Of a stretch of DNA of 64,000 nucleotides, positions 1,594-52,780 are shown piece after piece (within the stretch, counting starts at the first letter, position 1; each line of letters begins with the position of its first letter). Under the pieces are notes generated by a model. That model did no database searches and had not been told where the DNA came from. It saw only the letters and a program-made list of their open reading frames with translations. This DNA comes from an uncultured Actinomycetes bacterium (GTDB taxonomy: Bacteria > Actinomycetota > Thermoleophilia > Solirubrobacterales > 70-9). Made by a program: the position numbers and the translations under genes. Location: the NCBI GenBank assembly GCA_963782515.1, contig CAWAJY010000006.1, forward strand, positions 349,988-413,987. Direction: 5' to 3'.

Positions 1594-1987
1594 AGGGACG
1601 GGGCGTTTTGAAGCCGGCGCCCGAGGTGAGGGACGCAAGGCGGTGCCGACGAGTGCGGCCGTCTCGGCCACGGCCCTGGCTGGCTGTGACCGTGGCCGAG
1701 ACGGCCGGGGCATGAAAGCTGGGTTCTCCACGGTCCGAAGCCACCGAGACGAACCCATAGACCTTGGTAGCCCTTTGGGCTACCAAGGTCTATGGGTTGG
1801 GTCCGGGCCCGACAGAAGCGTGACGAGGGTGGGAACTTCCGGGCGGACGCGTGACGGACCATCGGAGATTCACACGAGACCCTCACGGTCCAGGGCGTCT
1901 CATGGAGGTCACAGCCTGCCAGGACCTCCATGAGACGCCCAGGGCACCGCTTCTAGAACTGCCGGGGGGCCGGGAGAACGGCCGTCC
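1594..1987 (+). repeat. mosaic hairpin repeat, locus A (type I: M1-M2-M3-M4-M5)
   Basis: M2 hairpin 1657-1706. M3 perfect 19-bp hairpin 1754-1796. M4 hairpin 1893-1940 (18-bp stem). Ends in acggccgtcc. Lies between convergent gene ends (1582 / 2002). Confidence 0.85.
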
Positions 1988-2001
1988 GCCGGCTACCACC
2001 C

Positions 2002-2673
2002 CTACTGCGGAGCCGCAGCCGGATCCGCGACGATCGTGACGGCGTCGTTCTTCACGCGGCCCGCGGGGATCGAGGGGTCGCCCGCGATCAGTTGCTGGAG
2101 GGGATCGCGCTTTTCCTCGCCGGTGACGAGGAAGAGGATCTGGCGGGCCTCCGCGAGGGCCGGGTAGGTGAGGGTCATGCGGCGGTGGCCCTGGTAGGGG
2201 TTGGTGGTGATCGCGACGCGGCGGTCGTCGACCTCGAGGACCGGGTCGCCGGGGACGAGGGAGGCGGTGTGACCGTCTGGGCCGAGGCCGAGGTGGACGA
2301 GGTCGAGGCGCCCGGGGAGCGAGGTGTCGTATTCGTGGGCGGCGGCGTCGAGGTCGCGGTTGGTGACCGGCATCGGGCGGAGCGCCGACTGGTGGTCCAT
2401 CGAGAGTCCGAGGACCATGTGGGTGAGGTTGCGCTCCTCGGAGCCGGGCGAGGCGATGCGCTCGTCGACCTGGAAGAGCTCGGTCTCGGCCCAGGGCATC
2501 TCCTCGAGTTCGCCGAGGATCGCCAGCATCGCCCAGGGCGAACGGCCGCCGCTCATCGCGAAGGCGAAGTGGCCGTGGTCGGCCACCGCGGCCGCGCCCG
2601 CCTTGGCGATCAGCTCGGCCGCGCGCCGGGCGGCGGCCTTTTCGTCCTTGGTGACCTCGAGGTCCAGGGGCAT
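2002..2673 (-). CDS. pgl: 6-phosphogluconolactonase
   Basis: 223 aa. Family-typical FAFAMSGGRSP and LGLGPDGHTASL motifs. Downstream of gnd on the same strand. Confidence 0.85.
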   Translation of the reverse strand: MPLDLEVTKDEKAAARRAAELIAKAGAAAVADHGHFAFAMSGGRSPWAMLAILGELEEMPWAETELFQVDERIASPGSEERNLTHMVLGLSMDHQSALRPMPVTNRDLDAAAHEYDTSLPGRLDLVHLGLGPDGHTASLVPGDPVLEVDDRRVAITTNPYQGHRRMTLTYPALAEARQILFLVTGEEKRDPLQQLIAGDPSIPAGRVKNDAVTIVADPAAAPQ

Positions 2674-2692
2674 GGTCGGTTGCTCCTCGCTC

Positions 2693-3709
2693 CTAGTTGT
2701 CGCGCTCTTTGTGGCCGCCGAACTGGTAGCGCATCGCCGAGAGGACCTTGTCGCCGAAGTCGCCGAGGTCGCGCGAGTAGAAGCGCTCGTGCAGCGCGGT
2801 GGTGAGGACCGGGGTCGGCACGCCCTCCTCGATCGCCGCGATCGAGGTCCAGCGACCCTCGCCGGAGTCCGAGACGCGGCCGCTGTATTCGGCGAGCTGC
2901 GGGCTCTCGGCGAGCGCCGCCGCGGTCAGGTCGAGGAGCCAGGAGCCGACCACCGAGCCGCGCCGCCAGACCTCCGCGATCGCCTGGATGTCGAGGTCGA
3001 ATTCGTAGTACTCGGGCTGGTCGAGCGGCGCCGTCTCGGCGTCGTCGAGCCGCTTGGTCTTGCCCGCGTCGGCGTTCTCGAGCACGTTCAGCCCCTCGGC
3101 GTAGGCGGCCATGATCCCGTACTCGATCCCGTTGTGGACCATCTTCACGAAGTGGCCCGCGCCGCTCTGGCCGCAGTGCAGGTAGCCCTGCTCGGCGGCG
3201 CTCGGCTCACCGGTCAGGCCCGGCGTGCGCTCCGCCGCCTCGACCCCCGGCGCCAGCGTCTTGAAGATCGGGTCGAGCCGCGACACCGCGTCGTCGGGCC
3301 CGCCGATCATCAGGCAGTAGCCGCGCTCGAGGCCGAAGACGCCGCCGCTCGTCCCGCAGTCGACGTAGTCGATCCCCTTCTCGGCGGCGCGTTTGCCGCG
3401 GCGCATGTCGTCGCGGTAGTAGGAGTTGCCGCCGTCGATGATCGCGTCGCCGGAGTCCAGCACCCCTTCCAGCCCCTGCACCGTCTCTTCGGTGATCGTG
3501 CCCGCCGGGACCATCACCCAGACCGAGCGCGGCGCGGACAGCTTCGCGGCCAGGTCCTCCAGCGAGGAGGCACCGTTGGCGCCCTCCCCCGCGAGGCCCT
3601 CGACGGCGTCGGGGTTGACGTCGTAGGCGACGATCGTGTGGCCGTCCTTCATCAACCGGCGGGCCATGTTGGCCCCCATGCGGCCGAGGCCGACGATTCC
3701 AAGCTCCAT
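2693..3709 (-). CDS. gnd: 6-phosphogluconate dehydrogenase (decarboxylating, short form)
   Basis: Start taken at [19 protein letters not shown] (ATG 3709), preceded by GGAGGAG. GxGxMG Rossmann motif and [16 protein letters not shown] motif. The longer ORF to 3769 has no RBS. Confidence 0.85.
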
Positions 3710-3804
3710 GGTTCTCCTCCTGGTGGGCCTTACTGGTGCGGGGCGCTGTTCGAACGGGGCGCCTCGCATCCTAGGCGCTGACAGCAGGTAGCCTGCGCGC
3801 CACG

Positions 3805-5214
3805 ATGGCGAAACGGACGAAGGGACACGTCGACAAGGCCGCGGACGTCCTGGCGATCTTCGGGATCAGCGGCGACCTGGCGAAGAAAATGACCTTCCGG
3901 GCGCTCTACCGGATGCAGCGCGCCGGGATGCTGAAGTGCCCGGTGGTCGGCGTCGCGCTCGACGACTGGGACGACGAGGGGCTGCGCAAGCACGCCCGCG
4001 AAGCGGTCGAAGCGACCGTCGCCGAGTGCGACATGGAGTCGCTCGACGCGATGCTCTCCCGCCTCTCCTACGTGCAGGGCGATTACGGCGACGCGTCCAC
4101 CTACGAGCGGGTTGCGCAGGCCCTCGGCGACGCCAAGCAGCCGGTCTTCTACCTCGAGATCCCGCCCTTCCTCTTCTCCACCGTGGTCAAGGGCCTCGGC
4201 AAGGCCGGGCTCGTCGACCGCGCCCACGTGGTGATCGAGAAGCCCTTCGGCCACGACCTCGAATCGGCCCGCGCCCTGAACGAGGAACTGCGCGAGGTGC
4301 TGGAGGAGGAACAGATCCTGCGGATCGACCATTACCTCGGCAAGGAGCCGGTGATGGACATCGCCTACATGCGCTTCGCCAACTCGACGCTCGAGCCGGT
4401 CTGGAACCGCGAGCACGTCTCCCACGTGCAGGTGACGATCGCCGAGAACTTCGGGGTCGACGACCGCGGCCATTTCTACGACTCGGTCGGGGCGATGCGC
4501 GACGTGATCCAGAACCACGCTCTGCAGGTGCTCGGGCTGATCGGGATGGAGCCGCCGAGCAGCAACGACCCCGACTCGATCCGGGACCAGAAGCTCTCCT
4601 TCTTCAAGGCGATGCGCGCGGCCGACCCGCAGCGTTACGTGCGCGGCCAGTACGACGGCTACCTCGACGTCAAGGACGTCGACCCGAAGTCGACGACCGA
4701 GACCTTCGCCGCGATGAAACTCGAGGTCGACAACTGGCGCTGGGCGGGCGTCCCCTTCTTCATCCGCGCGGGCAAGTTCCTGCCGGAGAAGACGAGCGAA
4801 GTGACCGCCGTGTTCCGGCGGCCGCCGCTGCTCGGCATCGGCCACGGGAAAACGCCGGAACCGAACCACCTGACCTTCCGGATCGAGCCCGAACCGGGAG
4901 CGCGGTTGCGGCTGTGGGCGAAAGCGGCCGCCGACGAAGGGTTCGAGCCGGCCGACCTCGAGGTCCTCTTCGAACGCGAACCGGGCTCCGACCCCGAGCC
5001 CTACGAGCGCCTCCTCGGCGACGCCCTGAACGGCATCCACACCCTCTTCACCCGCCAGGACGCGATCGAAGAGACCTGGCGGGTGGTGCAGCCGCTGCTC
5101 GACGACCCGGGCCCGGTGCTCCCCTACGCGCAGGGCACCTGGGGACCCGAGGCGGCGCAGCATCTGGTCAAAGGCACCACCGCCTGGGCCGATCCGTGGC
5201 TGCCCGGTAGCTAG
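3805..5214 (+). CDS. zwf: glucose-6-phosphate 1-dehydrogenase
   Basis: 469 aa with the RIDHYLGKE active-site motif and an N-terminal GxxGDLA NADP motif. Divergent from gnd-pgl. Confidence 0.9.
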
Positions 5215-5238
5215 TAGAGGCTGATTCGGGGCCCGCGC

Positions 5239-5759
5239 GGGACGGCGGTTGTTCCGGCGGTGGCGGCCGTCCGAGGTGCGTCCTGGGCGTCTCATGGGCG
5301 GTCCTGGCAGGCTGTGACCGCCATGAGACGCCCAGGACTTGAGGGGTTCGTGAAGCAGCCGGCACACCTCGGCCGGATCGGTGACGAAGATGCCGGGAAG
5401 GTCACACCCGCGTGAGCCTCCGGTCTGTCTCCGGGCCCGGGACAAGGGCCCGAGGCCTCGATGCAAGCATTGACGTCGTCATGGCGACACCAAAGCTTGC
5501 ATCGCGGTCGTGACCGTTGGACAACACGCACGGAAGCGTGGAGTTCCCACGGTCTCCGTGACGAGGTACGTCTTCCGTGACGGATCCGTGTCCCTCCCGT
5601 GACGAACCCGGGGCACCGTCGCGAGAGATCCGCCACTCCCCGCACTCCCGGCCGTCTCGGCCACGGCCACAGCCGGCCAGGGCCGTGGCCGAGACGGCCA
5701 CGCTCGCCGCCGGCCCTTGCGTCCCTTGCCCGGGCGCCGGCTTCAGACGGCCCCGTCCC
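5239..5759 (-). repeat. mosaic hairpin repeat, locus B (type II, reverse orientation)
   Basis: M5 5239-5275. M4 5280-5338. Conserved small hairpin 5381-5405. Variable hairpin VH1 5460-5503. Conserved core 5504-5610. M2 5650-5699. M1 5700-5759. Lies between the zwf stop and the efeU start. Confidence 0.85.
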
Positions 5760-5839
5760 TCCCCGGAACCATCCTCCCGCCCCAACTCCTAGCGGCCTGC
5801 TAGGTTTTCGGGCGCCCTTATTAGGGGGGCCGAATACCC

Positions 5840-6697
5840 ATGATCCCCACCTTCGTCATCACGCTGCGCGAGGGCGTCGAGGCCTCGCTGATCGTCGGCA
5901 TCATCGCCGCCTTCCTGGTCAAGGAGGGGCGCCGGGACGCGCTGCGGCAGATGTGGATCGGGGTCGGCATCGCGGTCGTCCTCTGCACGGCGGTCGGCGT
6001 CGGCCTGGACGTGGTCGGCGAAGAACTGCCGCAGAAGGAGCAGGAGGGGCTGGAGACGATCGTCGGCCTGATCGCGGTGGCGATGATCAGCTACATGATC
6101 ATCTGGATGACCCGCCACTCGCGGGAGATCAAGGCCGAACTCGAGGGCGAGGCGGCGAGCGCGCTGGCCCACGGCTCGGCGATGGCGCTGGTCGGCATGG
6201 CCTTCCTCGCGGTCCTGCGCGAGGGCTTCGAGACCTCCGTCTTCCTGCTCGCCGCCTTCCAGGACGCGACCGACACGACCGCCGCCGGCGCCGGCGCGGT
6301 CCTCGGCCTGCTCGCCGCGGTGCTGATCGGCGTCGGCCTCTACCGCGGCGGCGTCCACATCAACCTCTCGAAGTTCTTCAAGATCACCGGGCTCGTCCTC
6401 GTCTTCGTCGCCGCCGGCCTGCTGGCGACCGCCGCCCACACCGCCCACGAGGCGGGCTGGATCAACAGCTTCCAGTCCGAGGCGGTGAGCCTGCGCTGGC
6501 TGGTCCACCCGGGGACCGTCTCCGAATCGCTCTTGACCGGGATGCTCGGCCTGCGCGCCGTGCCGACCCAGGTCGAGGCGTTCGTCTACCTGGCCTACGC
6601 GATCCCGATGGCCACCTACGTCCTCTGGCCGCGCGGCCGCCGCGCCCCCAGCCGCAGCGCGGAGGCGGGCGGCACCGCCGCCCAGAACCCGGCCTAG
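5840..6697 (+). CDS. efeU: FTR1/EfeU-family iron permease
   Basis: 285 aa polytopic membrane protein with two REGxE motifs (REGVEASL, REGFETSV). Confidence 0.8.
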   Translation: MIPTFVITLREGVEASLIVGIIAAFLVKEGRRDALRQMWIGVGIAVVLCTAVGVGLDVVGEELPQKEQEGLETIVGLIAVAMISYMIIWMTRHSREIKAELEGEAASALAHGSAMALVGMAFLAVLREGFETSVFLLAAFQDATDTTAAGAGAVLGLLAAVLIGVGLYRGGVHINLSKFFKITGLVLVFVAAGLLATAAHTAHEAGWINSFQSEAVSLRWLVHPGTVSESLLTGMLGLRAVPTQVEAFVYLAYAIPMATYVLWPRGRRAPSRSAEAGGTAAQNPA

Positions 6698-6699
6698 CG

Positions 6700-7932
6700 A
6701 TGCCGCTCTCACGTCGTCGCCTGCTCGCCTCGGCGGGGCTCGGCGCCGCCGGCGTCGGCCTCGGCGCGGGCGGCTACCTCGTCGGCCACGAGGCCGCCAC
6801 GGCCGACGCCGCCGAAAGCGCCGGCACCGTCCCCTTCTACGGCGAGCACCAGGCGGGCATCGCGACGCCGGTCCAGGACCGTCTCCACTTCGCTGCCTTC
6901 GACCTCGAAACGGAAAGCAAGGCGGAGCTGCGCGAACTGATGGAAGAGTGGTCGCAGGCGGCGCGGGAAATGACCGAAGGCCGGATGATCGGCGCCGAGA
7001 ACGACAACGTCTACGCGCCCCCCGACGACACCGGCGAGGCGAAGGGCCTCACCGCCTCCAACCTGACCGTCACCTTCGGCTTCGGCCCTGGCATCTTCGA
7101 CCGCCCCGGCCTCGGGCTCGCCGCCCGGCGCCCGGCCGAGCTTAAACCGCTCCCGGCCCTCCCCGGCGATGAGCTGAACGGTCTCGAATCCGGCGGCGAC
7201 ATCTGCGTGCAGGCGTGCGCCGACGACCCCCAGGTGGTCTTCCACGCGATCCGCAACCTCGCCCGGATCGGCCGCGGCACGGTGACCATGCGCTGGTCCC
7301 AGCTCGGCTTCGGGCGCACCTCGAGCACCAGCCGCGGCCAGGAAACCCCGCGCAACCTCTTCGGGATGAAAGACGGCACGGCCAACATCAAGGCCGAGGA
7401 CACCGACGCGATGTCGAAGTTCGTCTGGGTCGACGACGGGCCGGCGTGGATGCGGGGCGGCAGCTACCTGGTCACCCGTCGGATCCGGATGAACCTCGAG
7501 GTCTGGGACCGGTCCTCGCTCGGCGACCAGGAGGAATCGATCGGCCGGCAGAAGTACAACGGGGCGCCGCTCGGCGGCAGCGAAGAGTTCGAACCGCTGC
7601 CGCTCGACGACAAAGATTCGAACGGCGAACCGGTGATCCCGGCGAACTCCCACGTGCGGCTCGCCTCGGCACAGGAAAACGACGGCCTGCAGATCCTCCG
7701 GCGCGGCTACTCGTTCACCGACGGCGTCGACCAGAGCCTCGGCCAGCTCGAAGCCGGCCTCTTCTTCATCGCCTTCCAGCGGGACCCGGACAAGCAGTTC
7801 GTCGCGCTGCAGCGCAAGCTCGGCGTCAACGACGCGCTCAACGAGTACATCAAGCACGTCGGCAGCGCCGTCTTCGCCGTCCCCGGCGGAGTCGCGAAGG
7901 GCGGCTACGTCGGCGAAGCGCTGTTCGCCTGA
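6700..7932 (+). CDS. efeB: Dyp-type peroxidase / deferrochelatase EfeB (Tat-exported)
   Basis: Start taken at MPLSRRRLLASAGLGAAG (twin-arginine signal), in frame within the long ORF 5599..7932. The Dyp family C-terminal region is recognisable (GLFFIAFQRDP). Confidence 0.85.
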   Translation: MPLSRRRLLASAGLGAAGVGLGAGGYLVGHEAATADAAESAGTVPFYGEHQAGIATPVQDRLHFAAFDLETESKAELRELMEEWSQAAREMTEGRMIGAENDNVYAPPDDTGEAKGLTASNLTVTFGFGPGIFDRPGLGLAARRPAELKPLPALPGDELNGLESGGDICVQACADDPQVVFHAIRNLARIGRGTVTMRWSQLGFGRTSSTSRGQETPRNLFGMKDGTANIKAEDTDAMSKFVWVDDGPAWMRGGSYLVTRRIRMNLEVWDRSSLGDQEESIGRQKYNGAPLGGSEEFEPLPLDDKDSNGEPVIPANSHVRLASAQENDGLQILRRGYSFTDGVDQSLGQLEAGLFFIAFQRDPDKQFVALQRKLGVNDALNEYIKHVGSAVFAVPGGVAKGGYVGEALFA

Positions 7933-8080
7933 AATTATTCCGACCGGATCCGTCGGTTTTTGTTAGGGTCCCCTAAGTAGGACCCACCTGTGCCCGGGAT
8001 CCGCGCCGAACGAGACGACGTCGCGGTCCTGGGCACGCCTTACCTCGAACCATCCACCTCTCACCAAGGAGTCTGTCCAG

Positions 8081-9229
8081 ATGAACCGTGTCCCTCTGCG
8101 TGCCCTGATCGCGGCGGTCGGCTTAGCCCTCGTCGCGCTGTTCGTGGCGGCCTGCGGCTCCAGCGGCGACAGCACCGCCTCCTCGGCCGACTCCACCCAG
8201 CTCACCTTCAAACTGACCGACGACGGCTGCGATCCGATCAAGGCGAGCGCCCCCGCCGGCCCGATCGACTTCACGGTCGAAAACGGCGGCACGAGCAAGT
8301 ACACCGAGCTCGAGATCCTCGACGGGGAAACGATCCTCGGCGAGCGCGAGAACATCATCGACGGCACCACCGGCAGCTTCTCGCTGACCCTCGAAGAAGG
8401 CGAATACGCGGTGCGCTGCCAAGAAGGAGGCGGCGACGGCGAAGCCACGCTGAAGGTGACCGGCCAGGTGGAAACCAAGAAGAGCCCGGAAATCGACAAG
8501 GCGATCGCCGACTACCGCGCCTACCTCGAGGAAAACACCGCCGAGCTGACGGCGAAGACGAAGCCGTTCGTCGCCGCGGTGATCGCCGGGAACATCGCGA
8601 AGGCGAAACAGCTCTACCCGGAACCGCGCATCCCGTACGAGCGGATCGAGCCGGTGGCCGAGTCCTTCGGCGACCTCGACCCGCGCATCGACGCGCGTGA
8701 AAACGACGTCGAGCCGAGTGAATTCGGCGGCTTCCACCGGATCGAGAAAGCGCTCTGGGAAGAAGAAAGCCTGAAGGGGATGAAGCCGGTCGCCGAAGAG
8801 CTGATGGCGAACGTCGAAGAACTGGAAGCGAAAGTCAAGGGCGTGAAACTGCAGGCGGTCCAGATCGCCAACGGCGCCAACGAGCTCCTCACCGAGGTCT
8901 CGACCTCGAAGATCACCGGCGAGGAGGAGCGCTACTCGCACATCGACCTGGTCGACTTCAAGGCCAACGTCGAAGGATCGGAAGACGCCTTCCAGGCGGT
9001 CGCCCCGCTGATGGAGAAGCAGGACCCGAAGCTGGCCAAGGAAATCGAAGCCGACTTCGCCAACGTCTACGCGACGCTGAAGCCCTACGAAACCGACAAG
9101 TGGCCCGGGTTCGTCTTCTACGAAGAACTCAACGAAGAAGACACCCGCAAATTGGCGCAGGGCATCAACGCGCTGGCCGAGAAACTGTCGCTCGTTCCGG
9201 CCCAGATCGCCAAGGGGGAACAGGCCTAG
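8081..9229 (+). CDS. efeO: EfeO-like iron-uptake lipoprotein (cupredoxin-like N-domain + M75/imelysin-like domain)
   Basis: AAGGAG RBS. Lipobox LFVAAC. GGFHRIEKALW (HxxE) motif typical of EfeO/EfeM. Confidence 0.75.
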   Translation: MNRVPLRALIAAVGLALVALFVAACGSSGDSTASSADSTQLTFKLTDDGCDPIKASAPAGPIDFTVENGGTSKYTELEILDGETILGERENIIDGTTGSFSLTLEEGEYAVRCQEGGGDGEATLKVTGQVETKKSPEIDKAIADYRAYLEENTAELTAKTKPFVAAVIAGNIAKAKQLYPEPRIPYERIEPVAESFGDLDPRIDARENDVEPSEFGGFHRIEKALWEEESLKGMKPVAEELMANVEELEAKVKGVKLQAVQIANGANELLTEVSTSKITGEEERYSHIDLVDFKANVEGSEDAFQAVAPLMEKQDPKLAKEIEADFANVYATLKPYETDKWPGFVFYEELNEEDTRKLAQGINALAEKLSLVPAQIAKGEQA

Positions 9230-9268
9230 CGTCAACCCGCCGGGGGAGTCCCTAGCCTGGGACGGTCC

Positions 9269-10888
9269 ATGGATGAGACCGCACAGATGAGCTTGGGTTC
9301 CTCCCCCGGCGGGGCCACGCCCGCCTCTCCCGGCGAGCGCGCCGACGCGTTGCTCGCGGAGCTCGGGTACGCCGAGTGGCGGGCGGGGCAGCGCGAGGCG
9401 GTGATCGCCGCCCTCGAGGGTCGCGATTCCCTGATCGTGATGCCGACCGGCGGCGGCAAGAGCCTCTGCTACCAGCTGCCGGGGCTGGCCTCCGACGATC
9501 TGACGATCGTCGTCAGCCCGCTGATCGCGCTGATGCGGGACCAGTGGCTGCGGCTGACCCAGGCCGGGCACCCGGTGGCGATGGTCTCCTCGGCGATGGA
9601 CGAGGGGGACACCTGGGACGCCCTGGAGAGCGTCCGCAACGGACGGGCGAAGATCGTCTACTGCGCACCGGAGCGCTTCGCCTCGCGGGTCTTCCTCGAC
9701 GCGATCGGGCAGCGCAAGGTCGACCTGCTGGCGGTCGACGAGGCCCACTGCGTCTCCGAGTGGGGGCACGACTTCCGCCCCGACTACCTGCGCCTGCCGC
9801 AGATCGCCGAGCGGCTCGGCCGGCCGACGGTGATGGCCTGCACGGCGACGGCGACGGTGCCGGTCGCGGTGGAGATCGCGCAGCGCTTCGAGATGCGGGA
9901 GCCACTGCGGGTGCGGGCGGGCTTCGACCGTCCCAACATCTCCTTCGACGTGATCGCGCTGGAGGGCAAGGGCTCCAAGGCGCGCCGCCAGGCGCTGCTG
10001 GAGACCGGGCTCGCCGACCCCGCCAACCGCCCCGCGATCGTCTACTGCGGCACCCGCAAGGACACCGACGAGGTCGCCGGAGAGCTGCGCTCGACCGGCC
10101 TGCGGGCGCTGGCCTACCACGCCGGGATGGAAGGCAACGAGCGCTCGATCGTCCAGCGGCGCTTCATGTCCGGCGGCGAGGACGCGGTCGACGTGGTCGT
10201 CGCCACCAACGCCTTCGGCATGGGAGTCGACAAGGCCGACGTGCGGTCGGTCTGGCACATGGCGATCCCGACCTCGGTCGAGGCCTACTACCAGGAGGCC
10301 GGGCGCGCCGGGCGCGACGGCCTGCCCTCGCGAGCCGTGATGCTGGCGATGAAGGCCGATCTCGGGCGGCTCGTGCGCTTCAACGAACAGCGGGCGAACG
10401 ACCCGGAGCTGGCGATCGCCCACGAGCGCGGCTGGCGTGCCTACCACGCGATCAAAGACTTCATCTACGGCACCCGCTGCCGCCGCGTCGCGCTGCTCGC
10501 CCACTTCGGCGACCGCCGCGCCGAGACCCCTCCCCTCGGCCGCTGCTGCGACATCTGCGACATGCTCGACTGGCTGCCCGACCCGGACACGATCGCCGTC
10601 CGCAAGCCGGCCCGCGCCGCCGGCACCTCCACCCCGGCCCCCGACCTCTCCCCCGGCGACGAACCCCTCTTCGAGGCCCTGAAGAAGTGGCGCCTCCAGG
10701 TTGCCGAAGGCAAGCCCGCCTACACGGTGGCGAACAACAAGACCTTGGCCTCGATCGCCGCCCGCCGCCCCACCGGCCGCCCGGCGCTGATCGAGATCTC
10801 CGGCGTCGGCCCCGCCTTCGTCAGCAAGTACGCCGAGGACGTGCTGGCCCTGGTCGCCGAGCACGACGAGTCGCAGCTGGCGGCTTAG
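9269..10888 (+). CDS. recQ: ATP-dependent DNA helicase RecQ
   Basis: PTGGGKSLCYQLP Walker A. DEAHCVSEWGHDFRPDY. A Cys-rich Zn module (CRRVALLAHFGD...CCDICD). C-terminal HRDC-like segment. Confidence 0.85.
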   Translation: MDETAQMSLGSSPGGATPASPGERADALLAELGYAEWRAGQREAVIAALEGRDSLIVMPTGGGKSLCYQLPGLASDDLTIVVSPLIALMRDQWLRLTQAGHPVAMVSSAMDEGDTWDALESVRNGRAKIVYCAPERFASRVFLDAIGQRKVDLLAVDEAHCVSEWGHDFRPDYLRLPQIAERLGRPTVMACTATATVPVAVEIAQRFEMREPLRVRAGFDRPNISFDVIALEGKGSKARRQALLETGLADPANRPAIVYCGTRKDTDEVAGELRSTGLRALAYHAGMEGNERSIVQRRFMSGGEDAVDVVVATNAFGMGVDKADVRSVWHMAIPTSVEAYYQEAGRAGRDGLPSRAVMLAMKADLGRLVRFNEQRANDPELAIAHERGWRAYHAIKDFIYGTRCRRVALLAHFGDRRAETPPLGRCCDICDMLDWLPDPDTIAVRKPARAAGTSTPAPDLSPGDEPLFEALKKWRLQVAEGKPAYTVANNKTLASIAARRPTGRPALIEISGVGPAFVSKYAEDVLALVAEHDESQLAA

Positions 10889-10915
10889 GGGAAGCTCGAC
10901 CCGGCTGTTGTGCCG

Positions 10916-11115
10916 GTCCCCGTTTGACGAGGGTAACGGGGACTCCACACTGCCGGATTCAGCGCTGCAGTCCTTACTGTCGCCATAGCGCCTACAAAGC
11001 TTGCAGCGCTGTCGTGAGTGTTGGACAACACGCACGGGAGCGTGGACTTCCTACGCTCTCTGTGACGATCCCTCGTCACTCCCCGCGGGCGCCGGCTTCA
11101 AGCGCCCCCTTCCGT
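10916..11115 (-). repeat. mosaic hairpin repeat, locus C (truncated type II; lacks M2 and M4)
   Basis: 9-bp hairpin 10916-10943. VH1 10960-11011. Conserved core 11012-11080 (gtgttggacaacacgcacgggagcgtggacttcc...). M1 remnant 11081-11115. Lies between the recQ stop and the MBL-hydrolase start. Confidence 0.75.
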
Positions 11116-11167
11116 TTGCCGGCCACCCCCACCCCGCCCCGCCGGGAGCAACTGAGAGGATTCGCGG

Positions 11168-12163
11168 ATGGCCGAAGCCCAGGTTGTCAAGCCACGGACC
11201 GAACGGATCCAGCCGGGGATCTGGCGGCTGAAGCTGCCCTGCCCGTGGCCGGGCGTGCCGCACGGCAACGCCTGGGCGATGCAGCGGGGCGCCGGGATCG
11301 TGCTGTTCGACACCGGGGTCGGCGGGCGCGGCCGGCTGCGGATGCTCGACATCGCGCTGGCGCAGGCGGGCTTCGGCGTCGAAGACGTGGAGCTGGTCGT
11401 CTGCACGCACTCGCACTCCGACCACTACGGCCTCGCCGCGTCGATCTGCGAGGAGACGGGTTGTGAGCTGTGGATGCACCCGAATTGGGAGCACATCCGG
11501 CTGCAGGCCGACGACCCCGAGGCGGCGCTCGAAGCCCGGCTCGAGGTGGGGCGGATGAGCGGCGTCCCGATGGTCGCGCTCGATCGCTATCGCCAGCGCG
11601 CCGCCAAACCCGAAGACCTGATCGACGGGATCCGGGTGCCGGACCGCGCACTCGTGCCCGGGGTGGAGGTGGAGACCGACGTCGGCACCTGGAGCGTCAT
11701 CGAGACCCCCGGCCACGCGCCCTCGCACGTCTGCCTGCACCAGGCGGAGCGGCGGCTGCTCGTCTCCGGCGATCACCTCCTCGGCCGCACCGCGATCTTC
11801 TTCGACTACGGCCACACGCCCGATCCCGTCGGCGAATACCTGGCGAGCCTCGACGCGATCGAACCGCTGCCGGTCGACCTCTGCCTGCCCGGCCACGGCA
11901 AACCGTTCCGTGAATCCGAGGCGAAGATCGAGGCGGTGCGCGAGCACGCCGCCGAGCTGCTCGACCGGGTCCGCGCCCAGCTCGCCGACGGCGCCGAACC
12001 GACCGCCTTCGAGGTGGTCGAAGGGATCGTCGGCCGCGAGAACCTGTCCCCCACCACCGGCGGCTTCATGCTGCAGATCGTCCTCGCCTGCATCGACCAC
12101 CTGGCGGTGCTCGGCGACGTCCGCAAGGTCCCCGATTCCGACCCGCAGCGCTGGCGTGCTTAA
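11168..12163 (+). CDS. MBL-fold metallo-hydrolase
   Basis: 331 aa with the HSHSDHYG (HxHxDH) motif. GAGAGGA RBS. Confidence 0.7.
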   Translation: MAEAQVVKPRTERIQPGIWRLKLPCPWPGVPHGNAWAMQRGAGIVLFDTGVGGRGRLRMLDIALAQAGFGVEDVELVVCTHSHSDHYGLAASICEETGCELWMHPNWEHIRLQADDPEAALEARLEVGRMSGVPMVALDRYRQRAAKPEDLIDGIRVPDRALVPGVEVETDVGTWSVIETPGHAPSHVCLHQAERRLLVSGDHLLGRTAIFFDYGHTPDPVGEYLASLDAIEPLPVDLCLPGHGKPFRESEAKIEAVREHAAELLDRVRAQLADGAEPTAFEVVEGIVGRENLSPTTGGFMLQIVLACIDHLAVLGDVRKVPDSDPQRWRA

Positions 12164-13673: not shown

Positions 13674-14658
13674 GCACCGCGAGGCTTTCGCTGTAGTTCT
13701 GGATCCGGTAGTTCGAGGTCGAGCCGAAGTCCTGGTAGTAGACGAGCATCTTCGTCCGCGGGTGGGCTTTCACCCAGGCAAAGAGGTGGGAGACGAAGCT
13801 CGGGTCGTCGCCCGCTTCGACGCCCCACTCGGTGATCGCGAAGGGCTTGTCGGGATAGCGTTCGTACAGCTTCGTCAGCGCGCCCCATTCGGGATAGGAG
13901 GCGTAGAAGTCGGTGCCGGTCCAGTCGACCCAGCGGTCGCCCGGGTAGAAGTTCTGCGGCAGGTTCTTCTTCGTCGTCGGCGACCCGGAGGGCAGCGGGC
14001 TCCAGACGATCGCCACCGGCGCCTTCGGCAGCCCGCCGACGGTCGCGTTCAGCGGCGGCAGCCCGGCTTCGGCGAGGCGCGCGTTGATGAGCTTGGCCTT
14101 GCCGCCGCCGTGGACGATCACGTATATGCGGCGGAACGCGCGCCGGTAGTTGCGGGCCGAATCGGCGGCCGAGCGCGGGTGCCCGGCGCATTCGAGGGCG
14201 GCGTAGACGTTGAGGCAGCGGTTCGGCTCGCCCAGCGGCCGCACGTAGGCGCGCATGTGCTTTTCGGCGAAGAGCTTGTTCAGGCGGATCAGGAAGCTGT
14301 CGCCGGCGCCGCGGGCGATCTGCGCCAGGGTCAGGATCTCGGCGCCCGTCTGCGGGTCGGCGGTGGTGATGTGGACCATCGGCCGGGCGCGGGCGATCTG
14401 CCAGCGCTGGATCGAGTTGCGGATTTCCGACCCCCAGGCCCGGAAGGACTCGATCACCGCCGGGTGCTTGGACACCGCTTCGGAGAATTCGCCGAACGAC
14501 GCCGGGTCGCCGGTGTCGGAGACGCCGAAGTAGATCTGCTTCCCCTTCGGTTCGAGCACCCCCGCCGAGGCACTCCCCGCCGCCACGCCGAGCGCCGCCA
14601 CCACGAGGGCGACGACGAGTGCCGCTGCTGCGGCCCGCGTGCGGTTGGTGCCGTTCAT
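13579..14658 (-). CDS. secreted GH26-like glycoside hydrolase
   Basis: Start taken at MNGTNRTRAAAAALVV (signal peptide). YPGDRWVDWTGTDFYA and FAITEWG motifs resemble GH26 mannanase-type enzymes. Family call is from memory. Confidence 0.5.
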   Translation of the reverse strand: MNGTNRTRAAAAALVVALVVAALGVAAGSASAGVLEPKGKQIYFGVSDTGDPASFGEFSEAVSKHPAVIESFRAWGSEIRNSIQRWQIARARPMVHITTADPQTGAEILTLAQIARGAGDSFLIRLNKLFAEKHMRAYVRPLGEPNRCLNVYAALECAGHPRSAADSARNYRRAFRRIYVIVHGGGKAKLINARLAEAGLPPLNATVGGLPKAPVAIVWSPLPSGSPTTKKNLPQNFYPGDRWVDWTGTDFYASYPEWGALTKLYERYPDKPFAITEWGVEAGDDPSFVSHLFAWVKAHPRTKMLVYYQDFGSTSNYRIQNYSESLAVLTARLHDGRFPAYAPGAPHLPPPPPGGVAPE

Positions 14659-14825
14659 CGGGATGCCGGGGCCGGCCGAGGAGACGCGCCTTGCCGGGCA
14701 GCGCCCCATGCTGCCAAGCGCGACCCGCCGGGCGAGGCTCACCGGGGCACCCTGCAACGCTCGTTGCGCCCCGCTGAGGTGCGGACCCGAGGCAAGCCGC
14801 CGGGGGGAGCCCTAGGAGGTGGAAA

Positions 14826-15375: not shown

Positions 15376-15381
15376 GCGACC

Positions 15382-16858: not shown

Positions 16859-16862
16859 CGAG

Positions 16863-17036: not shown

Positions 17037-17103
17037 CAAGTCGGCACCCTACCGAACCGATAAGCGGGGAGGAATCCACGAAAGGCCTCGGAAAGCTCCT
17101 CCT

Positions 17104-27670: not shown

Positions 27671-27681
27671 GTGCGCGGGGA

Positions 27682-42841: not shown

Positions 42842-44464
42842 ATGAAGAGCACGATGTCGGCGATGCCGCTGACGACGAGGTTGATCTACGACCACGGCAG
42901 GACGGTCCACCACCGCAGCCTCGTCACCACCTACGCGGCCGACGGCTCCTCCACCTCCCAGACCTACGCCGAGGTCGCCGCGCGCGCCGACCGGCTCGCC
43001 GCCGGCCTGCAGGCGATGGGCATCGTGCCGGGCGATCGCGTCGGCACCTTCTGCTGGAACCACGGCGACCACCTCGCCACCTACTTCGGCGTCCCCTGCA
43101 TGGGGGCGGTGCTCCACACGGTGAATCTGCGCCTCTTCCCCGAACAGGTCGCCTTCGTCGTCAACCACGCCGAGGACCGGGTGCTGATCGTCGACCAGAC
43201 GCTGGTCGACCTGCTGGCGCCGATCGCGGACTCGCTCGCCACGGTCGAGCGCTTCCTCGTCATCGGCGGCGACGGCGCCGCCCTGGGCGAGCGGGCGATG
43301 CCCTTCGAGGACGCGCTGGCGGCGCCCGAGGTCGAGCCCGGGTGGCCGGAGCTCGACGAGTCCGCGGCCGCCTCCATCTGTTACACGAGCGGCACCACCG
43401 GCGACCCGCGCGGGGTCGCCTACGGACATCGCTCGACCTTCGTCCACTCGATGGCCCAGTGCGCGACCAACGCCTTCGGCATCGGCCAGGACGACACGAT
43501 CATGCTGATGGTCCCGATGTTCCACTCGAACGCCTGGGGCCTCCCCTACTCGGGCTGGATGTCGGGCGCCGACTTCGTGATGCCGCAGGCGACCCTCGAC
43601 GCGGCCTCGCTCGCGCGGATGTTCAAGGAGCGCCGGCCGACCTTCACCGCGGGCGTGCCGACCCTGTTCAACGACCTGCTGAACCACACCGATCCCGAGC
43701 CGGTCGACCTCTCCACCCTGCGGGTCGCGGTCTGCGGCGGCTCGGCGGTGACCGGCGCGCTGATCGAGGCGATGCGCGCCCGCGGCGTGCCGATGCTGCA
43801 GGGCTGGGGGATGACGGAGACGAGCCCGCTCTGCGCCCTCTCGCACCCGCCCAAGCACACGCCGCCGGAGGAGGACAGCTACTGGCGCTCGAAGAGCGGC
43901 CGGCCCTCCTCGGCCGGGATCGAACTGCGGATCGTCGACGACGCGGGCGCCGAGCTGCCCTGGGACCGGGAGTCGGTCGGTGAGATCGAGGTCCGTGGAC
44001 CGTGGGTGACGACCTCCTACTACGGGATCGACACGCCGGAGAAGTTCGACCAAGGCTGGCTGCGCACCGGCGACGTCGGCTACGGCGACCCGGAGCGCTT
44101 CGTCCAGCTGACCGACCGCGCCAAGGACGTGATCAAGTCGGGCGGCGAGTGGATCTCCTCCCTCGACCTCGAGGACGGCCTCGCCTCCCACCCCGACGTG
44201 CTCGAGGTCGCGGTGATCGGCGTCGCCGACGAGCGCTGGGAGGAGCGCCCGCTCGCCTGCCTCGTCCTGCGCCAAGGCGCCGAGCTCGACCCGGCGGCCC
44301 TCGCCGACCACCTCGGCTCCCAGGTCGCCCGCTGGTGGATCCCCGAGCGCTGGTCGGCCCTCCCCGAGATCCCCAAGACGAGCGTCGGCAAGGCCGACAA
44401 AAAGGCCCTCCGCGCGGCCTACGTCGCCGGCGAGATCAAGGTCGTGAGCCCGACGCGGAGGTGA
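42842..44464 (+). CDS. AMP-dependent acyl-CoA ligase (FadD-like)
   Basis: 540 aa. YTSGTTGDPRG AMP-binding motif, GWGMTET, and a C-terminal PKTSVGKADKK. Confidence 0.85.
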   Translation: MKSTMSAMPLTTRLIYDHGRTVHHRSLVTTYAADGSSTSQTYAEVAARADRLAAGLQAMGIVPGDRVGTFCWNHGDHLATYFGVPCMGAVLHTVNLRLFPEQVAFVVNHAEDRVLIVDQTLVDLLAPIADSLATVERFLVIGGDGAALGERAMPFEDALAAPEVEPGWPELDESAAASICYTSGTTGDPRGVAYGHRSTFVHSMAQCATNAFGIGQDDTIMLMVPMFHSNAWGLPYSGWMSGADFVMPQATLDAASLARMFKERRPTFTAGVPTLFNDLLNHTDPEPVDLSTLRVAVCGGSAVTGALIEAMRARGVPMLQGWGMTETSPLCALSHPPKHTPPEEDSYWRSKSGRPSSAGIELRIVDDAGAELPWDRESVGEIEVRGPWVTTSYYGIDTPEKFDQGWLRTGDVGYGDPERFVQLTDRAKDVIKSGGEWISSLDLEDGLASHPDVLEVAVIGVADERWEERPLACLVLRQGAELDPAALADHLGSQVARWWIPERWSALPEIPKTSVGKADKKALRAAYVAGEIKVVSPTRR

Positions 44465-44475
44465 GGGTCCGGGTC

Positions 44476-44760
44476 GTCTGAGGCTGGCGCCCGGAGGCGC
44501 AAGGGACGCAAGGGCTGGCGGCGAGCGCCGCCGGCAACCCTTAGACCTTGGTAGCCCACAGGGCTACCAAGGTCTAAGGGTTGGGTTCCGGTCCATCGAG
44601 GCAATCACGGAAGTCCGGAGTTCGTACCGTCCCTGTGCCGGATGCTTCACGAACCCCTCACGTCCTGGGCGTCTCATGGCGGTCACAGCCAGCCAGGACC
44701 GCCATGAGACGCCCAGGACCGATCTCGGACGGGTGCCGCGGCCGCGAAGCATGCCGTCCC
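44476..44760 (+). repeat. mosaic hairpin repeat, locus H (type I lacking M2)
   Basis: M1 44476-44527. M3 44538-44580 (loop cacag, flipped relative to locus G). M4 44662-44719 (23-bp perfect stem). M5 44726-44760. Confidence 0.85.
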
Positions 44761-44885
44761 CCGCCCCCCCCAAGCCCTTGTAGAAACCCCCAACCCCCCT
44801 CTCGCGCCGCACCTCGCGCGCGGCTACGTTCTGGCGCACAGGACGAGACCGCGCGGGTGGGACCCGGGCGGAGAGGAGGAGCGAC

Positions 44886-50481: not shown

Positions 50482-50641
50482 GATTCCTCCTAGTCCATTG
50501 CCCTGTAGTGAGCGCGGGGTTTCCGCGCATCCCTTTTCTAGGCGAGCAACGGAGGCCGGGGGCGGACCTGGGGAAGCAGTCTTGTGGGTTCCCACAGGGG
50601 CCCCCCGCGCCGTTCGGCGGATAGCCGATAGCGTCGCGCCG

Positions 50642-51370
50642 ATGAGGAGATGGCTGGTCACCGGAGCCGGCAGCGGCATCGGCCGCGCCGTGGCGGAGCT
50701 CGCCGGCGCGGCGGGCGACGCCGTCGCGCTGGTCGGGCGGCGGGAGCTCGGCGAGGTCGCCGCGGCGGTCGAGAAGGCGGGCGGCGCGGCGGTCCCGATC
50801 CAGGCCGATCTGGCGGCCTCCGACGGCCCCGAAGCCGTCGCCGCGGCCGCGGCGGAGGGCCTCGACGGCCCGGTCGACGTCCTGGTCAACAGCGCCGCCC
50901 TGCACGTCGGCGGGCGCCTCGCGAGCCTCTCCGACGAGGACTACCGCGCGGTGCTGGAGATCGGACTGGTCGCTCCGTTCCGCTTGATCCGCACGGTCGC
51001 CGCCGAGATGGAGCGCGGCGGCGCGGTGGTCAACATCGGCGCCGTCGTCGGCCTGCGCGGCTTCCCCGGCGACTCGCCCTACGGCTCGGCCAAGGGAGGG
51101 CTCGCCGGCCTCACCAAGGTCCTCGGCGTCGAGCTGGCCCGCGACGGGATCACCGTCAACCTCGTCGTCCCCGGCTTCACCGACACCGAGATGACGGAGG
51201 GCGTCGACGACGTCGCCAAGGAGCGGATCGTCCGCGGCATCCCTCTGCGGCGCACCGCCGCGCCGGTCGAGATCGCCCGCGTCGTCCACTGGGTGGCCGA
51301 GACCCCTTACATGACCGGCGCCGTGATCCCGGTCGACGGCGGCCTGATGGCCGGGTTCGGAACGCACTGA
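50642..51370 (+). CDS. SDR family oxidoreductase (FabG-like)
   Basis: MRRWLVTGAGSGIGRAV and YGSAK motifs. Confidence 0.8.
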   Translation: MRRWLVTGAGSGIGRAVAELAGAAGDAVALVGRRELGEVAAAVEKAGGAAVPIQADLAASDGPEAVAAAAAEGLDGPVDVLVNSAALHVGGRLASLSDEDYRAVLEIGLVAPFRLIRTVAAEMERGGAVVNIGAVVGLRGFPGDSPYGSAKGGLAGLTKVLGVELARDGITVNLVVPGFTDTEMTEGVDDVAKERIVRGIPLRRTAAPVEIARVVHWVAETPYMTGAVIPVDGGLMAGFGTH

Positions 51371-51406
51371 CGATGGAGGCTTGTGGATGTCGACAGGAGG
51401 GCACGG

Positions 51407-52168
51407 ATGGTGAGTGAGGGCGCGGGCGCGATCGTCTTCGGCGGCGCGTCGGGACTGGGCGAGGCGACCGCGAGGCGACTGGCGGCCGACGGCGCCCGGG
51501 TCGTGATCGCCGACCTCGCGGGTGAGCGGGCGGGGGCGCTGGCCGCGGAGCTCGGCGGCGCGGGCGCCGCGGTCGACGTCCTCGACGAGGAGGGCGTGGC
51601 AGCCGCGGTCGAGGACGCCGCGAGCGCCCCGCGGGGCCTGCGGATCTGCGTCAACTGCGCCGGGATCGGGCCACCCGGGAAGCTGGTCGGCCGTGACGGG
51701 CCGAGCCCGCTGGCGAGCTTTCGCAAGATCATCGAGGTGAACCTGATCGGGACGATCAACACCCTGCGGCTGGCCGCGGCGGCGATGCTCGGCAACGATC
51801 CCGACGAGGAGGGCGAGCGCGGCGTCTGCGTCAACACCGCCTCGGTCGCCGCCTTCGACGGCCAGATCGGCCAGGTCGCCTACGCCGCCTCCAAGGCCGG
51901 AATCGCCGGCATGACGCTGCCGCTGGCGCGCGAGCTGGCCGGCCGCGGCGTGCGCGTCGCGACGATCGCCCCGGGCCTCTTCGACACCCCCCTCCTCGCC
52001 TCGCTCCCCGAGGACGTCAAGGCCTCCCTCGGCGCCGCGGTCCCCTTCCCACCGCGCCTCGGCCGACCGAGCGAGTACGCCGACCTAGTCGCCGCGATCG
52101 TCGCCAACCCGATGCTGAACGGCGAGACGATCCGCCTCGACGGGTCGATTCGCATGGCACCGCGCTGA
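51407..52168 (+). CDS. SDR, 3-hydroxyacyl-CoA dehydrogenase type II-like
   Basis: [40 protein letters not shown] and the C-terminal NGETIRLDG typical of HSD10-like enzymes. Confidence 0.75.
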
Positions 52169-52186
52169 GATGATCGATTCCACGGG

Positions 52187-52780
52187 GGGACGGGCGGGCG
52201 TGCTTCGGGGCGTCGCGTCCGTCCGAGTTGCGTCCTGGGCGTCTCATGGCGGTCCTGGCTGGCTGTGACCGCCATGAGACGCCCAGGACGTGAGGGGCTC
52301 GTGAAACATCCCGGCACACCTCGCCCCGATCTGTGACGAAGATTCCGGGAACGTCACACCCGCGTGAGCCTTCGGTCCGTCTCCGGGCCCTCGAGAGAGG
52401 GCCCGGAGACGCGCTGCATGCGTTGACCGTGCCATGGCACGGTCAACGCATGCAGCGCGGTCGTGACCGTTGGACGACACGCACCGAAGCGTGGAGTTCC
52501 CACGGTCTTCGTGACGAGGTCGGGGATCGGTGACGGATCCGTGACCCTCCCGTGACGAACCCGAGGCGCTCGCCCGGGCGATCCCGCCACTCCCCACATC
52601 CCCGGCCGTCTCGGCCACGGCCACAGCCAGCCAGGGCCGTGGCCGAGACGGCCGCGCTCGCCGCAAGCCCTTGCGTCCCTTGCCTCGGGCGCCAGCTTGA
52701 AACCGCCCCGAGCCCTTGGAATCAACCTTCTGACGGGCGTGCCCCCGGCCGCAGCGGCCGTCCGAGTTGCGTCCTGGGCG
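52187..52780 (-). repeat. mosaic hairpin repeat, locus F (type II reverse, plus a truncated second copy)
   Basis: M5 52187-52227. M4 52231-52290 (perfect 24-bp stem). Small hairpin 52334-52357. VH2 52379-52410 (perfect 14 bp). VH1 52411-52458 (48-nt perfect palindrome). M2 52604-52653. M1 52654-52716. Extra M5 plus a 10-nt M4 stub 52732-52780. Confidence 0.85.

Follow-up and report, generated by a model that had tools for sequence, protein, structure and literature searches.

A hairpin-rich, palindromic intergenic repeat family of about 0.5 kb in Solirubrobacterales

Closest described repeat families

REPINs and BIMEs are doublets of REP sequences that are mobilized by RAYT tyrosine transposases (Bertels and Rainey 2011, PMC3116915; Nunvar 2010, PMC2817692; Di Nocera 2013, PMC3733652). 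The family described here, first seen in a 64,000-nt stretch of DNA (the window), resembles them in being extragenic, non-coding and present in many copies, with a bias toward spacers that follow convergent or co-directional genes, in existing as mosaic, modular variants, in the lack of a TSD and in a long vertical persistence as within-genome populations. It also contains two homologous palindromes, termed M2 and M4, that form a larger foldable unit: of 107 within-element hairpin pairs, 94 were inverted M2/M4 pairs, seven were inverted M2/M2 pairs and one was flipped. However, its hairpins are 50-58 nt long with stems of 19-24 bp and loops of 12 nt, whereas REPs measure 20-40 nt with stems of 8-9 bp in the CGTC families, and it has no unpaired GTAG or CGTC tag, CGTC being located inside the stem. 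Judged by these family definitions (PMC3733652) it was rejected as a strict REP unit, since the hairpins are too large and the tag is not unpaired. Compared to a REPIN, the doublet spacing is much larger (194-554 nt, with no pair further apart) and accommodates a third hairpin at the center, between conserved core arms. The family occurs in an actinobacterial lineage, and no RAYT was identified; Actinobacteria are not mentioned in one REP survey.

MITE and foldback elements such as Correia/NEMIS, ERIC, RUP and Nezha (PMC3184786, PMC10969869) share with the family a size class of about 0.1-0.6 kb, the lack of an ORF, an inverted-repeat architecture folding into long hairpins, an intergenic location, deletion derivatives and insertion polymorphism between relatives. 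The elements are small (200-620 nt), multi-copy and without a conserved ORF, as expected of MITEs. A strict, DDE-transposon-derived MITE was nevertheless rejected because no TSD was present at the one cleanly resolved junction (L032/L192, see below). Furthermore, conservation is lowest at the termini and highest in the subterminal hairpins, the inverted repeat extends over the entire element (about 56% identity) instead of forming short, sharp TIRs, and no parent IS sharing the element ends was found in 1.35 Mb of sequence.

PATEs of the IS200/IS605 type are likewise non-autonomous and dependent on subterminal hairpins, and have neither TIR-type ends nor a TSD. In a PATE both end hairpins point the same way on one strand, with a fixed target of four or five nucleotides on the 5' side of the insertion. 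The hairpins of the present family are inverted and three resolved insertion sites share no common target motif, and a PATE was therefore rejected. The departure from strict MITE, REP and PATE definitions had been overlooked in the sequence-only reading that preceded this work. In agreement with its failure to name a family, Rfam gave no match at the gathering threshold, and only sub-threshold matches of the miRNA-precursor type to the long hairpins; searches of the literature for the hairpin sequences returned nothing relevant. Functionally, this is one more interspersed palindromic repeat family; as a non-coding, hairpin-rich palindromic repeat of about 0.5 kb it is apparently undescribed.

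Copies and architecture

The sequence-only reading had placed one repeat family at eight loci. Self-BLAST and repeat finding recovered all eight, with boundaries accurate to approximately 30 nt, and no ninth copy emerged when the whole window was searched with a profile. The family amounts to 3.58 kb or 5.6% of the window, and full-length copies match each other with E-values from 1e-56 to 1e-163. The copies are strictly intergenic, as had been claimed, all lying outside the ORFs that bear a GC3 coding signature. Both orientations occur (plus for A, D, E, G, and H, minus for B, C, and F), and four copies (A, E, G, and F) are located between convergent gene ends, while B, C, D, and H have co-directional neighbors. 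The claim that the copies hold no consistent ORF was also upheld.

The full element of approximately 520-620 nt is represented by four copies. Copy B (5239-5760, minus strand) is located between zwf (3805-5214, plus) and an FTR1 permease gene (5840-6697, plus). Copy D (14826-15375, plus) carries a short form of M1 and is flanked by two minus-strand genes. Copy E (24508-25124, plus), the most diverged of the four, is found between convergent MFS transporter and SDR genes, and copy F (52187-52780, minus) between a convergent SDR gene (51383-52168, plus) and thiolase gene (52839-54047, minus). The other copies are deletion derivatives. Copy A (1594-1987, plus) is a short variant composed of M1, the M2 hairpin, the M3 hairpin, the right core arm, the M4 hairpin and M5, between a gene at 1085-1582 (plus) and the 6-phosphogluconolactonase gene at 2002-2673 (minus). 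Copy G (27682-28099, or 27674-28099 by self-BLAST and repeat finding, plus), a short variant of the M3 type, is flanked by a SnoaL-domain ORF (plus) and ribBA (28099-29187, minus). Copy H (44476-44760, or 44460-44767 by self-BLAST and repeat finding, plus) is a truncated short variant with a remnant of M1, M3, M4, and M5, but without M2, and copy C (10916-11115, minus) is a fragment of the left core arm and central hairpin (10962-11011) located downstream of recQ.

The modules M1, M5 and the core were present as claimed, with M2 in six copies, M4 in seven and M3 in three. They are not independent building blocks, however; the element is a quasi-palindrome, and in its full form an inverted duplication whose two halves have diverged. 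Between the consensus and its reverse complement the identity was 55.6% (z = 7.2). Each arm consists, from the outside to the inside, of a ragged G-rich end (M1 or M5), a long subterminal hairpin (M2 or M4) and a core arm, and the two related core arms join at the central hairpin. M2 and M4 are homologous and mutually inverted, with stems of 19-24 bp that contain CGTCTC and with a conserved loop of 12 nt. In copy F the M2 hairpin at 52603-52654 has a stem of 19-20 bp and the 12-nt loop CTGGCNGGCTGT or its complement, while the M4 hairpin at 52231-52290 has a stem of 23-24 bp and the same loop in inverse orientation. M2 hairpins were also located at 1656-1707, 5649-5699, 14845-14895, 24592-24643, and 27741-27792, and M4 hairpins at 1888-1943, 5279-5338, 15269-15328, 25025-25083, 28017-28075, and 44661-44719. 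In copy G the M4 loop is flipped with respect to its flanks, the sole such case among 51 M4 hairpins with orientable flanks.

The central hairpin of copy F (52410-52459) is a perfect palindrome of 50 nt and the symmetry center of the element. Its counterparts at 5456-5507, 15041-15088, approximately 24820-24858 and in copy C vary in sequence but retain the pairing. In the short variant its place is taken by M3, found at 27891-27939 in copy G and at 1752-1798 and 44535-44583 elsewhere. Conservation is poor at the ragged outer ends, both of which bear GGGACGG-like motifs. Neither the inverted duplication of the whole element nor the homology of M2 and M4 had been noticed from the sequence at first.

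Distribution and insertion polymorphism

The family was found in several uncultured Solirubrobacterales (Actinomycetota) MAGs, with at least 45 loci in the 3.8-Mb chromosome OZ241364.1, and in 120 soil or rhizosphere metagenome stretches. Plasmid records and viral contigs gave no match. The sequence examined contained 233 element intervals. There was a clear preference for gene 3' ends: elements occupied 26 of 71 convergent spacers (37%), 24 of 245 tandem spacers (10%) and 2 of 75 divergent spacers (3%). An element adjoins 86 gene 3' ends. At adjacent junctions the stop codon was followed by GG in 43% of cases compared to 10% in the background, and by GGGG in 19% compared to 0.9%. Orientation relative to transcription was random in co-directional spacers (14 antisense and 10 sense).

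Copies clustered by genome into genome-specific subfamilies, with nearest-neighbor identities of up to 93.5% within OZ241364.1 and 85% within the window, compared to approximately 70-77% between genomes. No near-identical copies (above 95%) were seen in this comparison. Clean filled/empty polymorphism was observed at three sites. The MscS site was filled in L064, L079, and L080 and empty in L077 and L078, with the element of L080 in the opposite orientation, and the sigma-factor site was filled in L077 and empty in L079. Between L192 (empty) and L032 (filled) the junction could be placed to the base: ggcT|GAtCTAag became ggcT[534 nt]GAgCTAag, with no duplicated bases. No TSD was evident at L064/L078 or L077/L079, or on inspection of the copies in the window. 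New copies were found at formerly empty convergent stop-stop junctions. In the orthologous empty sites the stop codons overlap (CTAG).

Other copies are old. Copy B has orthologs in OZ241364.1 (L073, 7517-8002) and in L076, but is absent from L074. Orthologous copies were kept between species differing by about 10% in protein sequence, some of them persisting while decaying by deletion, and many copies are truncated in differing ways. In the orthologous pair L044/L056 the M4 hairpins are approximately 97% identical, compared to 86-90% for the flanking genes, while the core cannot be aligned. A host function or gene conversion would also fit the persistence of orthologous copies and the well-conserved M4.

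Mobility and alternative roles

Three roles had been proposed from the sequence, i.e., a non-autonomous mobile element, a large structured RNA and a terminator module. The first was retained while the other two were weakened. Based on the filled/empty polymorphisms, the genome-specific subfamilies and the lack of an ORF, we consider it probable that the family is a non-autonomous, TSD-less and hairpin-dependent mobile element, similar to a giant REPIN or foldback MITE, and most likely it spread through Solirubrobacterales genomes as a parasite. The element would multiply within these chromosomes, and insertions would survive where they are least harmful, in the handful of nucleotides that separate or follow stop codons. 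The inverted M2/M4 hairpins may be the cis-acting sites for an enzyme supplied in trans, which by analogy to RAYTs and REPIN doublets probably recognizes hairpins of single-stranded DNA. Such an enzyme would account for four features: stem and loop sequences that are conserved, hairpins that are strictly inverted, no TSD, and a bias of G.T over A.C mismatches on one hairpin strand. On the strand with loop CTGGCNGGCTGT we counted 26 A.C and 10 G.T mismatch events, a bias that rests on few independent events (approximately p = 0.01).

Several observations count against mobility. The ragged and poorly conserved ends are unlike those of a transposon with defined termini, neither a target motif nor a TSD was found, and with no copies more than 95% identical the comparison does not demonstrate recent transposition. 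No transposase was matched either when an IS200 TnpA query was compared to all ORFs of the window and 80 loci (about 0.65 Mb), although this is a weak test. No autonomous, ORF-bearing copy was present among the 94 M2/M4 hairpin pairs in 1.35 Mb, no multi-copy ORF in the window and 76 genome-derived loci, and no adjacent partner gene.

More tentatively, the family may be a long-lived, vertically persisting replicator of a new type, a giant REPIN whose inverted 50-nt hairpins with the conserved 12-nt loop are recognized as single-stranded DNA by a putative dedicated recombinase or transposase in Solirubrobacterales, or are copied by a transposase-independent, hairpin-templated mechanism. Insertion would be TSD-less and take place precisely at convergent stop-codon junctions, with the stop codons regenerated.

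A host-beneficial module at gene 3' ends is an unlikely alternative, where the stable hairpins would act as bidirectional transcription barriers, insulators or protectors of mRNA 3' ends between convergent genes or neighboring ones, roles that have been suggested for REP/BIME and Correia sequences. The enrichment in convergent spacers and near absence from divergent ones, the element ends directly abutting stop codons, the extreme fold stability on both strands, the symmetric design suited to both directions of transcription, and M4 of L044/L056 being better conserved than the flanking genes all agree with it. However, 14 terminator-like sites were found in bases 1-20,000 of the window and none of them in copies A-D. 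None of the hairpins in these copies is followed by a T-run, and inspection revealed none after M2 or M4; an intrinsic (Rho-independent) terminator, with a T/U run after a G+C-rich hairpin, was therefore rejected. Element-free convergent spacers have a median of just 18 nt and the empty sites have overlapping stops, which indicates that the host manages without such a module. A purely structural role also leaves the conservation of stem and loop sequence across genera and the genome-specific subfamilies unexplained, and many copies are truncated. If the family is a mobile element, an inserted copy would probably also act as a passive, very stable 3'-end structure on either transcript, as a by-product and not as its reason for existing.

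The elements fold extremely well. Copy F reached -345.6 kcal/mol as RNA (z = -12.8) and -200 kcal/mol as DNA (z = -12.2) relative to dinucleotide shuffles. In 27 full-length copies 95.8% of the sequence-by-pair cells were paired and 23 pairs had compensatory changes, 12 of them among the 17 pairs of the central hairpin; the observed covariation was reached by none of 500 shuffles. Two or more different Watson-Crick pairs occurred at 9 of 19 M2 and 9 of 23 M4 stem positions. It is improbable, although in line with near-perfect long palindromes preserved through compensatory changes, the equivalence of strands, the lack of orientation bias and the cross-genus conservation of the hairpin sequence, that the family represents architectural or recombination sites at the DNA level, where hairpins as cruciforms or on single-stranded DNA would be bound by a host protein (a nucleoid protein, gyrase or a resolvase), in the way that IHF and gyrase attach to BIMEs, with copy number kept by gene conversion. 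New insertions at empty sites require a mechanism beyond conversion, the bias toward gene 3' ends resembles a tolerance filter and not regular spacing, and we know of no protein that binds these hairpins. A multi-copy structured RNA gene, guide-RNA-like or ribozyme-like and expressed from each copy, is very improbable despite the low z-scores, the covariation, the highly conserved core motifs and several long-range core pairs tolerating G-U on the M1-to-M5 strand, as the reverse strand folds equally well (-307 vs. -313 kcal/mol), orientation is random relative to flanking transcription, a search of window bases 1-20,000, where copies A-D lie, gave no promoter-like site, Rfam matched no more than generic long hairpins, no partner gene is adjacent, and the covariation is mostly in palindromes, which are also maintained by DNA-level processes.

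An extra partial right end, consisting of M5 and the first 10 or so nucleotides of M4 (52731-52788; 25-58 nt within 52731-52835), is located beside copy F.

Copies in the window and anatomy of the element

The eight intergenic loci that the sequence-only reading had grouped into one hairpin-rich repeat family (copies A to H) were compared with the window by BLAST, and both this search and repeat finding returned the same eight loci only. A profile HMM built from 27 full-length copies found no further copy in the window. Four copies are full-length, E (24508-25124) and D (14826-15375) on the plus strand and B (5239-5759) and F (52187-52780) on the minus strand; they were found to be 69-85% identical to each other, with BLAST E-values down to 1e-163. 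In the shorter variants A, G and H the M3 hairpin takes the place of the left core and the central hairpin, while copy C is a fragment of the core. Repeat finding placed a second partial right end at copy F (52731-52788) in repeat family D16. The total of 3.58 kb, or 5.6% of the window, agrees with the earlier estimate. Gene calls, based on GC3 heuristics, and Pfam matches likewise bore out that every copy lies outside coding sequence and that four of them (A, E, G, and F) are located at convergent gene ends. Genes of ordinary metabolism flank the copies (zwf, pgl, FTR1, recQ, ribBA, and genes for MBL-fold, MFS and SDR proteins, an acyl-CoA ligase, a thiolase and a luciferase-like monooxygenase).

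The consensus of the element is quasi-palindromic and aligned full-length to its own reverse complement with 55.6% identity, 7.2 SD above shuffles; the element is therefore an inverted duplication whose halves have diverged. Each arm consists of a G-rich end (M1 or M5), a subterminal hairpin (M2 or M4) and a core arm, and the arms join at a central hairpin of the form GCTGCA..TTGA..GCTATAGC..TCAA..TGCAGC. M2 and M4 are homologous hairpins. Both stems contain CGTCTC at an equal distance from a 12-nt loop, which is CTGGCNGGCTGT in M2 and the reverse complement of CTGGCNGGCTGT in M4. Of 107 hairpin pairs within elements, 94 were inverted M2/M4 pairs, seven were inverted M2/M2 pairs and one, in copy G of the window, was flipped. 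Seven elements (L123, L136, L149 and four more metagenome loci) have M2-type hairpins at both ends in place of M2 and M4 and form a symmetric subfamily. The M4 hairpin of copy G (28017-28075) has its 12-nt loop in reverse orientation to the flanks, the sole case among 51 M4 hairpins with orientable flanks. This implies that the segment between the arms of the hairpin was inverted, a rare event.

In the 27 full-length copies pairing was present in 95.8% of the sequence-by-pair cells and compensatory double changes were found at 23 pairs, a level of covariation reached by none of 500 shuffles. The central hairpin was the most variable, with changes on both sides at 12 of its 17 pairs. M2 and M4 are nearly invariant, yet have compensated variants, with two or more different Watson-Crick pairs at 9 of 19 stem positions in M2 and 9 of 23 in M4. 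Folding of copy F gave z-scores of -12.8 for RNA and -12.2 for DNA. M1 contains 0, 1 or 2 units of about 35 nt (GGGACGGGGCC..GAAGCTGGCGCCC..) followed by GGGACGCAAGGG, and therefore acts like a small tandem repeat. Runs of the G-quadruplex type, such as GGGACGGGGAAGGGACGCAAGGG, were seen in the G-rich M1 ends (1594-1655, 24508-24590 and others in the window; 940-1040 of L077).

Insertion, decay and position at gene 3' ends

Comparison of the same sites in related genomes showed that this non-coding repeat inserted at new sites without a target-site duplication. The clearest junction is that of L192 (empty) and L032 (filled), where ggcT|GAtCTAag became ggcT[534 nt]GAgCTAag. No target-site duplication was found there, and filling changed the stop codon from TGA to TAG, with AG coming from the element. 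At the convergent MscS junction the element of OZ241364.1, the 3.8-Mb chromosome of a Solirubrobacterales MAG, occupies 561 nt exactly between TAG and TCA. L079 and L080 also carry the element at this junction, L080 in the opposite orientation. In L077 the site is empty and the two stops overlap as CTAG; L078 likewise has no element there, only a spacer of 9 nt. At a sigma-factor junction the element is present in L077 and absent in L079. The empty-site comparisons of the window with L072 and of L030 with L068 gave no information on gain or loss because synteny breaks there.

The element also decays by deletion. Between zwf and FTR1 the window has copy B, OZ241364.1 a copy without M4 and L076 another copy, while L074 has only 221 unrelated nt. 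The pgl site was found in four arrangements in four genomes, opposite orientations among them. In the orthologous pair L044/L056 the M4 hairpins are about 97% identical and the flanking genes 86-90%, while the core is unalignable. Spacers that lack the element in relatives hold other long hairpins, as in L074 (7410-7632 and 4116-4185); one has the form GGGGAGGTTCGTCCGGG...CCCGGACGAACCTCCCC, and another, of 20 bp, is centred on CTAT beside an M5-like remnant. Such hairpins may represent a second hairpin family or the final traces of the element.

Copies cluster by genome, so that the element diversifies into genome-specific subfamilies. Identity to the nearest neighbour reached 93.5% among copies of OZ241364.1 and 85% among those of the window, compared to about 70-77% between genomes, which indicates that amplification or homogenisation took place after the lineages split.

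The element is filtered to gene 3' ends. In the window and 76 genome-derived loci it occupied 26 of 71 convergent, 24 of 245 co-directional and 2 of 75 divergent spacers. Element-free spacers in this set had medians of only 18, 37 and 80 nt, respectively, and the element thus makes up most of the long spacers of these compact genomes. Counted from -40 to +60 nt around elements, 86 gene 3' ends were found. A stop codon beside an element was directly followed by GG in 43% of cases (10% in the background) and by GGGG in 19% (0.9% in the background); the G-rich end of the element often begins directly after the stop codon. In co-directional spacers the orientation relative to transcription was random (14 antisense, 10 sense).

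In the window and L001-L200, the loci from other genomes and metagenomes (about 70% G+C), the stop codons were TAG in 41-46%, TGA in 49-54% and TAA in about 5% of cases, and convergent genes often have overlapping stops that form the palindrome CTAG. Such a TAG share is unusually high for high-G+C bacteria. As TAG adjoins many copies, an IS630- or IS5-like TA/CTAG target was suspected. It was rejected because TAG is simply common (51% of background stops, 41-46% in the second count), junctions with TGA are frequent as well and no duplication is present at L032/L192.

Upstream of the FTR1 gene (5840-6697) the window contains a conserved motif, CCTAGCGGCCTGCTAGGTTTTCGG..GCCCTAAT.AGGG (5765-5835), which is common to the window, OZ241364.1 (L073) and L074, with or without copy B. 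The region is probably the operator/promoter of the iron-permease operon. Two adjacent small ORFs of the window (501-1088 and 1085-1582) are paralogues without a Pfam match (71% identity between 785-1052 and 1294-1561), and the corresponding place in OZ241364.1 (L073 2504-3979) holds three such genes.

Candidate roles and a proposed mechanism

Three roles had been considered for the family. A non-autonomous mobile element is favoured by the insertion at new sites and by the lack of an ORF. As claimed, no copy was found to carry one, all M2-M4 spacings being 194-554 nt. An autonomous copy or partner gene was also sought; in 1.35 Mb of sequence no M2-M4 pair is more than 554 nt apart, and the single gene bracketed by outward-facing element ends encodes a glycoside hydrolase. 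A search for multi-copy ORFs in the window and 76 genome-derived loci found none, and approximately 0.65 Mb of sequence gave no IS200-type match.

It is plausible that the element acts passively, as a stable 3' structure on the transcripts of both sides, but the data can be explained without such a role. Orthologous sites that are empty and have overlapping stops demonstrate that the host can do without the element. A large, strand-specific structured RNA was rejected as unlikely, since both strands fold equally (means of -313 and -307 kcal/mol) and orientation to transcription is random. Rfam, in line with the earlier reading, gave nothing specific at gathering or E-value thresholds, only generic long-hairpin (miRNA precursor) types far below threshold. 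Canonical terminators were rejected because copies A-D contain no hairpin followed by a T-run; no promoter-like sites were found in window 1-20,000, which holds these copies.

In the way it works, the element comes closest to REPIN/BIME systems and foldback MITEs. It differs from a MITE, for which a target-site duplication and sharp termini are expected, in having neither. Membership of the CGTC-tagged REPs was rejected, as the hairpins are two to three times the size of those of REPs and the GTAG or CGTC tag by which REP families are defined is missing (PMC3733652). Whereas PATEs of IS200/IS605 have direct end hairpins and a fixed target, the hairpins here are inverted and there is no fixed target. 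A literature search on the hairpin sequences returned nothing relevant, and no description of the family was found in the literature searched. Functionally this abundant, real family belongs with the interspersed palindromic non-autonomous repeats, among which its architecture is unusual.

We propose that an enzyme supplied in trans would use the hairpins as its cis-sites. The M2/M4 mismatches, scored on the strand with loop CTGGCNGGCTGT, comprised 26 distinct A.C-type and 10 G.T-type events, a bias of about p = 0.01 if the events are independent, which is doubtful. A.C mismatches on this strand imply tolerated G.T wobbles on the other, and the bias lends modest support to recognition of a folded single strand. 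The favoured hairpin would lie near the 3' end of each strand, and the strand with loop ACAGCCNGCCAG is the predicted substrate. Such recognition would resemble that of REP hairpins by RAYT enzymes, an analogy with which the absent target-site duplication agrees. If a hairpin-recognising enzyme is involved, REPIN/RAYT-like 'resident replicators' would reach a deep actinobacterial lineage and extend to a much larger, more elaborate element, and the enzyme would have a long, well-defined DNA hairpin as substrate.

Hosts and spread

Copy numbers from the pattern scans of the collections are lower bounds. With the M4 pattern, at least 72 loci were found among one genome per species, and about 45 of those listed were located in OZ241364.1. 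The matches listed outside this chromosome were from five other MAGs, besides two probable chance matches. One of the five is labelled Proteobacteria (JAFEFH01, Proteobacteria bacterium SZAS LIN-13; L063 and L069). The copy in L063 was most similar (86%) to one of the Actinomycetota MAG SZAS-15, and the two contigs are probably mis-binned actinobacterial DNA. The window zwf product shared at most 92% identity with any entry of the protein collection and 91% with its counterpart in OZ241364.1; judged by this protein, the window genome is different from, but related to, OZ241364.1. The M2 pattern found at least 120 stretches in JGI metagenome contigs, whose samples we take, from the project identifiers, to be soil and rhizosphere. 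Ga0153956, Ga0268266 and Ga0081455 are among the metagenomes with such contigs. Two scans of viral contigs and a BLAST of plasmids gave no match.

Several percent of these compact genomes consist of the family, which can serve as a lineage marker for uncultured Solirubrobacterales that are abundant in soil. It needs to be masked in gene calling, as stop codons fall next to or within the element, which is also crossed by long spurious ORFs. Contigs frequently end within the element (e.g., L006, L033, L047, L057, L076, L079, and L080), and it therefore probably breaks short-read metagenome assemblies of this lineage.
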